Origin: a virus | Lineage: Duplodnaviria; Caudoviricetes | Reading direction: 5' to 3' (one strand) | IMG/VR virus record: IMGVR_UViG_3300042154_002208 | Length of the DNA stretch: 64,000 nucleotides | Part shown: in pieces, positions 34,290 to 37,018 of the stretch | How the letters are laid out: the number at the start of each line of letters is the position of its first letter | Numbering within the stretch: position 1 is the first letter of the stretch | Notes under the pieces: generated by a model | The model's input: only the letters and a program-made list of their open reading frames with translations | The model's database searches: none | What the model was told of the DNA's origin: nothing | Position numbers and translations under genes: made by a program

Positions 34290-34586
34290 ATGAATGAACT
34301 TAACAAAGATCAAGCCGCTATTCTTCAAATTTTACAAGAAGAATGCGCAGAAGTAATTCAAGCAACATCGAAAGTATTTCGATTCGGATTGTTTGATACA
34401 CATCCAAATACCCCAAGCAAAACAAATACAAACCATCTTGAAGAAGAATTGGGCGATGTTCTCGCAATGATTGAATTGCTAGATTCGCACAAAGTTATTT
34501 CTTATAGTAATGTAATTCAGTTTAAACAAAGAAAATTCGATAAGCTGCGTACTTGGTCGGAAATAGATGTAGACTACCGAGGATAA
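34290..34586 (+). CDS. MazG-like nucleotide pyrophosphohydrolase
   Basis: ILQEECAEVIQATSK and LEEELGDVLAMI (EExxE...EExxD) motifs. Confidence 0.8.
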   Translation: MNELNKDQAAILQILQEECAEVIQATSKVFRFGLFDTHPNTPSKTNTNHLEEELGDVLAMIELLDSHKVISYSNVIQFKQRKFDKLRTWSEIDVDYRG

Positions 34587-34592
34587 CCAAAC

Positions 34593-34624
34593 GCCTGAGT
34601 GGTGAAATAGGTAGACACAAAGAC
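34593..34624 (+). pseudogene. 5' half remnant of a tRNA-Leu
   Basis: GCCTGAG TG GTGAAATAGGTAGACAC (Leu-type D arm) ends at the anticodon stem; no matching CTCAGGC 3' strand nearby. Confidence 0.7.
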
Positions 34625-34670
34625 ACACCTTAACTTTCCGTTTATTATAAATAATAATAAAGGAGAGTAT

Positions 34671-35138
34671 ATGATAGATGTACAAGAGTTTATAAAAGAA
34701 TCTCGAGAAGTTCGCAGATCGCATTTAGATTTAACTGAAGAATGTTGTGAACGAGGTGGAAATTCTACAAATCATAAAGGTGTTCTTGCAGAATATTTAG
34801 ATACAACTATACCATCGGGAAGAATTCTTTTATGTCATGCGTGCAATAATGGTAAATGTAGTAATCCTAAACATTTATATTGGGGCACTGATTATGATAA
34901 TATCATAATTGATGGTAAAGAATTTGGTACTCACATTTCTCCCTGGGAAAGACGAGTTGAAAAATATGGGTATGAAAAAGCTTGTGCTATGAATAGTAAA
35001 GTTGGTAATACAAATGGATCTGGCAACAAAGGTAAACCTAAGTCAGACGAACATAAAAGAAATATTGCATTAAATCGAAAAGGTGGGAAACCTAAAGGTT
35101 GGAAAAAGAACAAGGCGCCTGTAACCGAATTGGTATAG
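34671..35138 (+). CDS. HNH/His-Cys-type homing endonuclease with NUMOD3-like motif
   Basis: LCHACNNGKCSNPKHLYWGT..DN and KGKPKSDEHKRNIA motifs; own TATAAATA (34646) and SD AGGAG. Confidence 0.85.
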   Translation: MIDVQEFIKESREVRRSHLDLTEECCERGGNSTNHKGVLAEYLDTTIPSGRILLCHACNNGKCSNPKHLYWGTDYDNIIIDGKEFGTHISPWERRVEKYGYEKACAMNSKVGNTNGSGNKGKPKSDEHKRNIALNRKGGKPKGWKKNKAPVTELV

Positions 35139-35191
35139 GTATCGGACTTAAAATCCGAGTTTTGTGGGTTCGAGTCCCACCTGGCGCACCA
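35115..35191 (+). tRNA. tRNA-Leu(TAA), short variable loop
   Basis: Acceptor GCGCCTG/CTGGCGC, arm TCGGA-CTTAAAA-TCCGA, CCA end; 5' end overlaps the endonuclease stop codon. Confidence 0.9.
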
Positions 35192-35211
35192 TTTTTATAT
35201 TAAAGAAAATT

Positions 35212-35691
35212 ATGTCAATTACATTAAAAAACTTAGAAAGTGCCTTAGCCGGCGAATCTATGGCTCATATTAAATATCGTTACTTTGCACGTATTGCTCG
35301 TGACGAAGGGTTTGAAGATATTGCACAACATTTTGAGCATACTGCAGATCAAGAAATTAAACACGCATGGGGTCATTTGGATTTGCTAGTAGGCACACCA
35401 ACTACCAAAGAGTGTTTGCAACTAGCGATTATGGGTGAAACATACGAGTTCACTAAAATGTATCCTACATTCAAAGCGCAAGCTGAGCAAGAAGGTAATG
35501 CATTTGCCGCAAAAGAGATTGACCATCAGATTTCAGAATCACAAGAGCACGCTGCTCAATTTATGGAAATTATGCAAAAAGCTGAGAAGAGATTTACAGC
35601 ATTGGCAAAGGTTGAAGAACGTCATGCAAAAGCATATGAAGATTTGTTAAATAGTCTTGAATTTAAACAAGCCCTATTGGGAGGCAAATAA
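35212..35691 (+). CDS. rbr: Rubrerythrin
   Basis: LESALAGESMAHIKY, EIKHA, GETYEFTKMYP and ESQEHA di-iron motifs. Confidence 0.92.
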   Translation: MSITLKNLESALAGESMAHIKYRYFARIARDEGFEDIAQHFEHTADQEIKHAWGHLDLLVGTPTTKECLQLAIMGETYEFTKMYPTFKAQAEQEGNAFAAKEIDHQISESQEHAAQFMEIMQKAEKRFTALAKVEERHAKAYEDLLNSLEFKQALLGGK

Positions 35692-35692
35692 T

Positions 35693-35827
35693 ATGAGTGA
35701 AACACACGTATGCGTAGTTTGTGGTCACGAACACGATGAAACAATCGAAGGTAAATGGAATGATTTGCCTGCAGACTTTACCTGCCCAGAGTGTGGTGTA
35801 GGCAAAGAAGATTACGAAGTAATTTAA
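35693..35827 (+). CDS. Rubredoxin
   Basis: CVVCGH...WNDLPADFTCPECGVGKEDY; 44 aa. Confidence 0.92.
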   Translation: MSETHVCVVCGHEHDETIEGKWNDLPADFTCPECGVGKEDYEVI

Positions 35828-35833
35828 AAAGTT

Positions 35834-35910
<77 letters not shown>

Positions 35911-35916
35911 TTTTAT

Positions 35917-36312
35917 ATGATTAATATTCTTGTCAACGGCACATTCGATATTGTTCACAGAGGACATATTGAATTACTTAATTATGCTAGAGGTTGTGGT
36001 CAACAACTTATAGTCTGTATTGATTCGGATAGACGAGTTAAAGAATTAAAAGGTGATAGTAGACCTATTAATAATCAAGATGATAGAAAACATCTGTTAC
36101 AAAATTTAAGAGCAGTTAATGCTGTTCATATATTTGATTCAGCTGAAGAATTAGAAATGCTTTGTAAACAGTATTCGCCTATAATGGTTAAGGGTAGTGA
36201 TTATAAAGATAAGCCTATTGTGGGAAGTCAATATTGTAAAGAGATTAGATTTGTGGATTTGGTAAATGGATATTCAACAACAAAAACAATTCAAAATATT
36301 ATTACTCGGTGA
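35917..36312 (+). CDS. D-glycero-beta-D-manno-heptose 1-phosphate adenylyltransferase (RfaE domain II-like)
   Basis: NGTFDIVHRGH, IDSDRRVKELKGDSRPINNQDDR, VKGSDY and GYSTT motifs. Confidence 0.88.
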   Translation: MINILVNGTFDIVHRGHIELLNYARGCGQQLIVCIDSDRRVKELKGDSRPINNQDDRKHLLQNLRAVNAVHIFDSAEELEMLCKQYSPIMVKGSDYKDKPIVGSQYCKEIRFVDLVNGYSTTKTIQNIITR

Positions 36313-37018
36313 TAATTGTATTGATGTTTATCAGTATGGTGCAGTAGATCGTATCAGTCCTGAAGCACCTGTGCCTGTGTTCAAATTTTCTCACGAAGAA
36401 AAACGAGCAGGCATGGCGGGCAATGTTAAGAATAATCTAATTTCACTTGGTGCAGATGTTACATTCCTACACGGAGAAACTTCTACAAAAACTAGATTGG
36501 TTGACCTTAAAAGCAAACAACATATTGTTAGAATTGATAATGATGTTTTATCTGATGCATTTGTTTTTGATACAAGTATTCCAAAATTATATGACGCAAT
36601 AGTGATTTCCGATTATAATAAGGGAACAATTAGTTATGAGATGGTCGAAGAATTAATTGCAGACTTTAAAGGTCCAGTTTTTATTGATACAAAGAAAACG
36701 GATCTTAAAAGATTTGAAGGTGCAATCGTTAAAATTAATAGTTTAGAAAATAGTTTGGCCAAGACTTTACCTACAGAGTTAATTGTAACTATGGGTAGAT
36801 ATGGGGCACAATATAAAGATCAACAATATTCCGCACCGCACACCGAGGTGTTTGATGTTTGCGGTGCTGGAGATACATTTCTTTCAGCGTTGGTTCTTGA
36901 ATTCTTAAAGACAAACAATATGGAAAAGGCAATTGAGATTGCCAACATTGCAGCTAGTATTACAGTAAAGCATATCGGAGTATATGCACCGACATGGGAA
37001 GAAATAAATGAGGCTTGA
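36266..37018 (+). CDS. Heptose 7-phosphate kinase (RfaE domain I-like, PfkB)
   Basis: RISPEAPVPV, GMAGNV, ISDYNKG and VFDVCGAGDTF motifs. Confidence 0.88.
   Translation: MDIQQQKQFKILLLGDNCIDVYQYGAVDRISPEAPVPVFKFSHEEKRAGMAGNVKNNLISLGADVTFLHGETSTKTRLVDLKSKQHIVRIDNDVLSDAFVFDTSIPKLYDAIVISDYNKGTISYEMVEELIADFKGPVFIDTKKTDLKRFEGAIVKINSLENSLAKTLPTELIVTMGRYGAQYKDQQYSAPHTEVFDVCGAGDTFLSALVLEFLKTNNMEKAIEIANIAASITVKHIGVYAPTWEEINEA

Follow-up and report, generated by a model that had tools for sequence, protein, structure and literature searches.

Free-standing homing endonucleases bias the inheritance of neighbouring genes, and some travel in cassettes that combine a nuclease with self-protection or gene repair, among them T4 mobA with the gene-60 insert, Aeh1 mobE splitting nrdA, and the Allomyces mitochondrial atp6 hybrid with its endonuclease open reading frame (ORF). 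In these cassettes the nuclease moves with sequence that leaves the invaded gene uncuttable yet functional, and in Allomyces a foreign gene end replaces the resident end, whose remnant remains. Integrases that insert into tRNA genes restore the 3′ end of the gene, and the cleave-and-rescue and home-and-rescue drives, which are synthetic, follow the same logic: a useful gene is disrupted and a working, insensitive copy is brought in. Here we analysed a 64,000-nucleotide (nt) stretch of a virus of the Caudoviricetes (IMG/VR record IMGVR_UViG_3300042154_002208; 'the window' below means this whole stretch), in which a free-standing nuclease gene lies between the broken-off start of one tRNA-Leu gene and a complete tRNA-Leu(UAA) gene. 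It is quite probable that a free-standing homing-endonuclease cassette, made up of a leader, the nuclease and tRNA-Leu(UAA), entered a resident type-II tRNA-Leu(UAA) gene at the boundary of the D-arm and the anticodon stem.

The nearest functional counterpart of the cassette nuclease is T4 SegB, a free-standing GIY-YIG homing endonuclease in a tRNA cluster that cuts within tRNA genes and drives the inheritance of itself and of neighbouring tRNA genes (PMC2330249). Both are free-standing nuclease genes in phage tRNA arrays, absent from close relatives, and both have a late promoter and a hairpin over the ribosome-binding site. SegB differs in its GIY-YIG fold and in recognizing a T-psi-C motif at the 3′ end of many tRNAs; it also lies between intact tRNA genes, with no resident tRNA destroyed and no same-anticodon replacement flanked by target remnants. 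The best match in sequence and structure is I-PpoI, and the window nuclease shares its proposed catalytic His and Asn. The gene for I-PpoI lies in a group I intron of slime-mould nuclear rDNA and the match covers the core only, whereas the window nuclease is free-standing, phage-borne and ends in a basic NUMOD3-like tail. Compared with mobA and mobE (both listed in PMC2988022) and with the Allomyces cassette, the present element brings a whole tRNA as a second complete copy, has a tRNA gene as its target and is found in many phage lineages. Compared with integrases and synthetic drives, it is a natural element and is proposed to use double-strand-break repair rather than site-specific recombination. 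Full-text literature searches returned no described nuclease that destroys a tRNA gene and carries a complete same-anticodon replacement, nor any account of I-PpoI-like phage nucleases forming a family bound to one tRNA species.

The remnant of a displaced tRNA-Leu gene

The window belongs to a T4-like lake phage whose gp43-type polymerase is ~52% identical to cyanomyovirus homologues. Among cultured phages, a near-identity search with positions 33800-36400 gave no match, and a distant search with the same segment matched only the nuclease and generic tRNAs, with no close relative. The site comprises the following features:

34593..34624, plus strand: 5′ remnant of a resident type-II tRNA-Leu(UAA), without mismatch through 34620; 34621-34624 degenerate
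34621..34670, plus strand: cassette leader with a late promoter inside a hairpin, ~90% identical to the leader of locus L023
34671..35138, plus strand: free-standing His-Me finger (His-Cys-box-like) nuclease of 155 amino acids, assigned by motif, Pfam and PHROG and, weakly, by fold
35115..35191, plus strand: replacement tRNA-Leu(UAA), compact 77-nt type-I, called by ARAGORN (Rfam 64.9 bits)

The remnant contains the acceptor 5′ strand GCCTGAG, the whole D-arm and tRNA positions 26-28. A 26-nt probe taken from it occurs once in the window, against 0 expected from shuffles, and an exact search of IMG/VR with this fragment identified 12 contigs (L003-L014; L numbers denote the loci compared). In all 12 the fragment begins an intact 85-nt, long-arm tRNA-Leu(UAA) with no nuclease. 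Positions 34593-34620 of the window are exactly the first 28 nt of this type-II tRNA; beyond these 28 identical nucleotides the window diverges from the 12 intact alleles, with BLAST extending the match as far as 34624. The gene order Ser, Ser, ~1.4 kb, Leu(UAA), Met, Gly is common to the window and most of the 12 contigs. The remnant GCCTGAG is unable to pair with the downstream CTGGCGC, and a 3′ half matching the GCCTGAG acceptor strand was found nowhere in the entire 64-kb window. At the level of sequence, these comparisons confirm that 34593-34624 is the start of a real, displaced resident tRNA gene. The original prediction, made from the letters of the window alone, had taken this segment for the 5′ part of a tRNA-Leu, broken off and unable to pair downstream, and had proposed looking for relatives with an uninterrupted GCCTGAG-type tRNA-Leu; the segment is as described, and such relatives exist at the same site.

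Filled and empty sites

Presence or absence of the cassette is polymorphic between near-identical genomes, as seen in the window against L006 and L010 and in L024 against L152. The intact 85-nt tRNA is present in the nuclease-free L006, whose identity to the window is 97% on the left, ending at 34624, and 99% on the right, starting at tRNA-Met (35834). For L010 the identity is 89-90% on either side, and its intact tRNA precedes the same rubrerythrin and rubredoxin pair as in the window. Compared with the empty sites, the window is missing tRNA positions ~29 to the end and has gained leader, ORF and new tRNA; when L006 is the reference, rubrerythrin and rubredoxin are a further gain. In the second pair, which has shared flanks, L024 is filled and L152 is nuclease-free, and the L024 cassette is bracketed by the first 28 nt and the last 7 nt (AGCACCA) of the resident tRNA. 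For the pair L032 and L135, upstream divergence was too great to set boundaries.

Traces of the resident 3′ end are also present in L027 and L042, where an exact 26-nt stretch, comprising T-arm, acceptor strand and CCA, lies 12-13 nt 3′ of the complete downstream tRNA. It is identical to that part of intact alleles having the acceptor of the upstream fragment. The 5′ and 3′ remnants in L024, L027 and L042 thus point to an ancestral form in which resident ends flank the cassette, with a probable layout of resident positions 1-~27, leader, nuclease, whole tRNA and resident positions ~52-85. The window and L023 have no 3′ remnant, and the CCA of the new tRNA directly abuts the old flank. We considered, and rejected, the possibility that the downstream tRNA is the resident and that the fragment alone was imported, as the relatives of the window have the GCCTGAG allele at this position.

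Two further features flank the cassette:

34290..34586, plus strand: MazG-like gene in the upstream flank (Pfam)
35212-35691 and ~35693-35827, plus strand: rubrerythrin and rubredoxin genes (region 35192..35833), absent from L006

The rubrerythrin and rubredoxin genes were probably co-transferred with the cassette in the event that shaped the window. Among the intact-allele contigs this gene pair between tRNA-Leu and tRNA-Met is itself polymorphic, being absent from L004, L006, L007, L009 and L014 and present in L003, L005, L008 and L010.

The nuclease and tRNA-Leu(UAA) recur as a pair

The search for relatives returned 49 IMG/VR loci, of which L015-L043 are the close ones. Essentially all of these close loci have the nuclease ORF followed on the same strand by a complete tRNA-Leu(UAA), at a distance of -20 to +75 nt, and the neighbouring genes are diverse. 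The pairing of nuclease and complete tRNA-Leu(UAA) is found in ~19 distinct metagenomic phage lineages, as against 0/101 unselected phage tRNA-Leu(UAA) genes with the nuclease upstream. The module itself differs between lineages: the downstream tRNAs are mostly long-arm alleles of 83-90 nt, and L023, whose nuclease and leader are the closest to those of the window in IMG/VR, has an 85-nt tRNA. An exact search of IMG/VR for the middle of the new tRNA gave 0 occurrences; close copies were reached via the protein. On the ENA contigs L292/L293, the nuclease is 83% identical to that of the window in amino acids and 74% in nucleotides, with a third-position identity of 48%, and a 5′ tRNA-Leu fragment lies upstream of it. 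The tRNA of these contigs is identical at 76/77 positions, including the T6.T67 mismatch, and the ORF and tRNA overlap at the same junction. Homology to the window covers only 34599-35191; beyond it these contigs have unrelated flanks, with Met and Gly on the upstream side and Val and Ser on the downstream side.

Judged from these comparisons, the nuclease and the tRNA behave as one module. The intronless mobile unit of nuclease and tRNA at tRNA-Leu genes that had originally been proposed from the window alone has held up in its comparative predictions, namely in the empty sites, the ~19 lineages, the remnants and L292/L293. An assembly artefact is unlikely, because the stretch is present in 20 lake-water metagenome runs from 2018-2024 and because, on a Logan contig from a different sample, a nuclease 95% identical to that of the window is followed, in the order of the window, by a 72-nt gap, rubrerythrin and rubredoxin.

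More distant homologues (L044-L056, and L001, which is Citrobacter phage Ursula, at 2415-2914) lie in tRNA arrays beside Gln, Gly, Arg, Leu-UAG and Ile2 genes. These neighbours suggest sub-families with other tRNA-gene targets.

Upstream fragments and the D-arm allele

At many loci a 5′ tRNA-Leu fragment ending at the same tRNA position stands before the ATG of the nuclease, and on the strength of these alignments the fragment appears to be a family-wide feature and not a one-off scar. In the window, L015, L024/25, L026 and L028, fragments with the exact 19-nt D-arm stop 51-53 nt short of the ATG, and in L027 39 nt short of it. In L042 the exact D-arm is 68 nt before the start of the tblastn match, that is, ~53 nt before the ATG, which lies 15 nt upstream of the match. 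L029/30 departs from this D-arm at one position, L035 and L039 have a variant of it, and the fragments of L023, L032, L034, L036 and L041 are degenerate. Acceptor strands differ, with 5 different 7-mers among the exact fragments, and every one of these acceptors occurs in intact nuclease-free alleles with the same D-arm. Since synonymous sites in the nuclease lineages are saturated, the perfectly conserved fragments are not neutral passengers: either they were captured recently from resident genes, or they are retained because the element makes use of them, perhaps as homology arms. Of these, repeated capture is favoured by the variety of acceptor strands.

The exact D-arm motif is present in 7/19 upstream fragments compared with 11/119 (9%) genes in a baseline sample. 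It occurs in 0/19 downstream tRNAs, a count that taken alone is not significant against the 9% baseline (P ~0.17); in these tRNAs 3-10 D-arm positions depart from it, frequently as paired D-stem changes, and the D-arm of the window's replacement tRNA differs from that of the resident at 10/20 aligned positions. The 119 motif-bearing loci included 105 intact tRNAs, with 0/105 having a nuclease within 700 nt upstream or 900 nt downstream, and at no nuclease-bearing locus was a second copy of the motif found. This pattern fits, without proving, a nuclease specific for the motif allele class accompanied by resistant rescue alleles.

The 19-nt D-arm was also seen at L141:1210, L158:4623 and L166:5504 (oriented copies), in tRNA-like genes with long unexplained inserts. 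These three loci have no ARAGORN tRNA call and no nuclease homologue downstream.

The constancy of the junction bears on whether any targeting is involved. It always falls at tRNA position 26-28, with the fragment 39-53 nt (mostly 51-53) before the ATG, across saturated lineages; one D-arm allele is enriched among the fragments (7/19 versus 9%); and the partner is specifically tRNA-Leu(UAA) in ~19 lineages. It is thus unlikely that the locus is a recombination scar formed without site-specific targeting, in which the module would have been shuffled by homologous recombination and the nuclease would cut elsewhere or non-specifically, like a relaxed SegB. Such an origin would agree with tRNA genes being recombination hot spots in tRNA arrays, with the window differing from L006 by a 1.2-kb patch between two tRNA genes, with more distant homologues adjoining many different tRNAs, and with the recognition by SegB of a motif common to many tRNAs (PMC2330249).

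The nuclease and its expression signals

The motif CHxCxNxxCSNPxHLYWGT...N is present in the window protein, whose basic C-terminal tail includes a NUMOD3-like stretch. Its sole Pfam match is zf-His_Me_endon (PF05551), at 14.9 bits and E 0.03 for a cut-off of 27, and its other match is PHROG 1872, 'endonuclease'; no GIY-YIG family is among the Pfam or PHROG matches. In an alignment of the window protein with 19 homologues, zf-His_Me_endon is matched by 20/20 family members (best E 8.4e-5) and HNH_3 by 8/20. Residues C25, C55, H56, C58, N60, C63, P66, H68 and N77 are invariant in the 20 sequences, and H35 is present in at least 90% of them. The putative catalytic His, metal-binding Asn and Cys/His zinc ligands, roles assigned by analogy with I-PpoI, are thereby conserved.

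A profile search of the PDB returned I-PpoI only (E 0.026, on the CHxCxNxxCxNPxHL block). With an AlphaFold2 model of the protein (predicted local distance difference test score 76.7, core >85), Foldseek gave nothing at E<=0.001, with I-PpoI ranking top. Exhaustive structural alignment with VIA-align likewise placed I-PpoI first (Z 4.3 over 58 residues, 28% identity), ahead of I-HmuI (Z 3.5) and further HNH nucleases, all matches being below Z 5. The motif supports, and the fold weakly supports, a His-Me finger nuclease nearest the His-Cys-box type. An HNH/His-Cys endonuclease with a NUMOD3-like motif had been predicted here; the nuclease assignment stands on Pfam (20/20 family members), PHROG and, weakly, the fold matches to I-PpoI and I-HmuI, and the NUMOD3 part is only weakly supported, with NUMOD3 (PF07460) matched by 3/20 homologues at E<=5 (best E 0.013) and not by the window protein itself.

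Compared with 12 homologues, the ratio of nonsynonymous to synonymous substitution rates is 0.05-0.16, with synonymous sites near saturation. The nuclease is therefore under purifying selection, and its gene is maintained by selection. At E<=1e-10 the family comprises 898 homologous clusters (90% identity), every one of them named 'hypothetical'.

Between the remnant and the nuclease, a T4-type late promoter, TATAAATA, lies at 34646-34653 within a hairpin that spans 34633-34668. The 3′ arm of this hairpin is the Shine-Dalgarno sequence AAGGAGAG (34660-34667, with AAGGAG at 34660-34665), and the ATG follows at 34671. A late promoter and a Shine-Dalgarno sequence behind the remnant were thus correctly read in the original prediction. 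The leader hairpin has a folding energy of -13 kcal/mol (z -3.85), and 0/200 shuffles fold as well. Among homologous leaders, 8/9 fold the same way in different registers as single sequences; RNAalifold gave no consensus structure for 12 aligned leaders, and there is hence no covariation argument. A hairpin over the ribosome-binding site combined with a late promoter has been described for I-TevI, I-TevII, I-TevIII, segB and mobE, an arrangement in which early read-through transcripts are untranslatable and late transcripts translatable (PMC2988022). The leader of the window thus carries regulatory signals of the type found in homing-endonuclease genes.

At 34242-34270, before the MazG-like gene, lies a perfect sigma-70-type promoter in which 17 nt separate TTGACA from TATAAT, with a TG upstream. 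By analogy with the described systems, read-through from this promoter would give transcripts in which the ribosome-binding site of the nuclease is hidden.

The replacement tRNA

The complete, different tRNA-Leu(UAA) noted in the original prediction as starting within the last nuclease codons is confirmed at 35115-35191, beginning 24 nt before the end of the ORF. This overlap consists of the final 7 nuclease codons together with the stop codon, so that 5′ maturation of the tRNA would leave the nuclease mRNA without its stop codon. Overlaps of other kinds were seen elsewhere in the family: at L015:3446-3532 the TAA that forms the anticodon of the downstream tRNA also terminates the nuclease ORF, and at L031:3448-3570 the ORF runs through the whole tRNA gene.

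The replacement tRNA scores 64.9 bits against the Rfam tRNA model (RF00005; gathering threshold 29), and has the anticodon UAA, A73 as discriminator and a mismatch, T6.T67. With a variable loop of 5 nt, the 77-nt tRNA is without the long arm of bacterial type-II tRNA-Leu. The 3-bp D-stem, 11-nt D-loop, 5-nt variable loop and A73 are common to the window's own 77-nt tRNA-Leu(UAG), and positions 6-67 are 90% identical to tRNA-Leu of T5-like phages. The compact class accounts for 21/101 sampled IMG/VR phage tRNA-Leu(UAA) genes. The 77-nt tRNA is predicted to be charged with leucine. TTA is the commonest Leu codon of the phage, at 43% of Leu codons in the window, which gives a reason for retaining a rescue copy.

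We rejected the reading of the 77-nt tRNA as a recent variable-arm deletion or a decaying pseudogene, because it is conserved at 76/77 positions beside a near-saturated nuclease and belongs to a populated compact class. Sequence conservation thus indicates purifying selection on the tRNA as on the nuclease. Compact 77-78-nt type-I tRNAs with the leucine anticodons UAG and UAA occur in the window at 30921-30997 and 35115-35191, and are frequent also in T5-like phages.

The frequency of compact tRNA-Leu in phages, together with the binding by I-TevI of an operator that resembles its homing site (PMC2988022), would also suit a module kept mainly for the benefit of the phage. In that case the compact tRNA-Leu would let the phage escape a host defence that cleaves tRNAs, and replacement or amplification of tRNA loci would be promoted by the nuclease; the fragment would possibly be an autorepression operator. 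A precedent is the reported SegB-driven amplification of tRNA loci that counters a defence cutting a tRNA variable loop (PMC13096335). We nonetheless regard this reading as very unlikely to explain the locus, since most cassettes carry an ordinary long-arm tRNA-Leu, so that loss of the variable arm is not the common theme, and no defence against tRNA-Leu has been tied to these hosts.

Comparison with the tRNA-Leu(UAA) intron

A group I intron is known in tRNA-Leu(UAA) of cyanobacteria and plastids. Like the cassette, it is a mobile element inserted into this gene, and the alleles hit belong to one and the same D-arm class. The intron differs in sitting after U34, in being removed by splicing and in having no nuclease ORF in the copies seen here, and the window is without a ribozyme. 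Among phage tRNA-Leu(UAA) genes with the same D-arm, 9/119 have an insert of ~225 nt after the anticodon U34, which is the classical position of the cyanobacterial tRNA-Leu intron; these are L107 (13185-13378, minus strand), L068, L074, L079, L083, L127, L159, L168 and L171.

For window positions 34400-35400, no Rfam match to a group I intron (Intron_gpI) or to any other relevant family was obtained even at E<=10, in line with the original statement that an intron core is lacking, and the same search does detect the intron in L107 (RF00028, 53.4 bits). An interrupted tRNA gene, whether by an intron or as a split gene, with the 5′ fragment spliced to a 3′ half, is barely credible even though related phage alleles have a group I intron in tRNA-Leu(UAA) (L107, Rfam 53.4 bits), since 34400-35400 has no ribozyme match at E<=10, the L107-type intron follows U34 and not position 26-28, no complementary 3′ acceptor strand is present in the window, and the downstream tRNA is complete on its own.

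Proposed homing with a rescue tRNA

Several points weigh against the entry of a homing-endonuclease cassette into the resident tRNA-Leu(UAA) gene. All comparators are metagenomic contigs, and the fragments that they carry may not be independent events. As the window has no 3′ remnant, its 5′ fragment could derive from the donor and not the recipient. The window protein falls below the Pfam cut-off (14.9 versus 27 bits), its fold matches are weak (Z 4.3), and the recognition and cut sites of the nuclease are putative. Added to the baseline already given for the motif in downstream tRNAs, no single D-arm position is altered in all of them. Finally, the L016 group, L031, L040 and L043 have no fragment, and the homologues of L033, L044-L056 and Citrobacter phage Ursula adjoin other tRNAs; the specificity of the nuclease therefore varies or is looser than proposed.

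In the proposed mechanism of cassette entry, mixed infection would allow the late-made nuclease to cut nuclease-free tRNA-Leu(UAA) genes bearing the D-arm TGGTGAAATAGGTAGACAC, and the break would be repaired from the cassette-bearing genome. The anticodon and variable arms of the resident gene would be lost (in the window, its whole 3′ part) and its first 26-28 nt would stay. The cassette tRNA-Leu, whose D-arm differs, would take over the decoding of UUA and UUG and is presumed to escape cutting. The remnant D-arm, and in some lineages the remnant T-arm, would provide homology for entry into other phage genomes. Cleavage of the old allele, the cut site, the specificity and the resistance of the new allele are accordingly all predicted properties. 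Taken as a whole, the evidence supports the cassette as a form of intronless homing in which the nuclease brings a rescue tRNA.

More tentatively, the cassette might be a natural 'home-and-rescue' gene drive of phages, one that destroys tRNA-Leu(UAA), supplies an uncuttable copy, uses the target remnants as portable homology arms and jumps between unrelated phages wherever a sensitive allele exists. The conserved 5′ half-site may, in such a drive, act as a nuclease-binding operator. The rescue tRNA would be exchangeable between long-arm and compact forms, so that the drive would reshape phage tRNA repertoires.

If intronless homing with a rescue tRNA is true, engineered cleave-and-rescue drives would have a counterpart in nature, and part of the allele turnover and of the pseudo-tRNA fragments in phage tRNA arrays would be accounted for. 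The cassette would also offer a compact nuclease with a defined, conserved target of ~20-40 bp, for which both sensitive and resistant alleles would be at hand for study.
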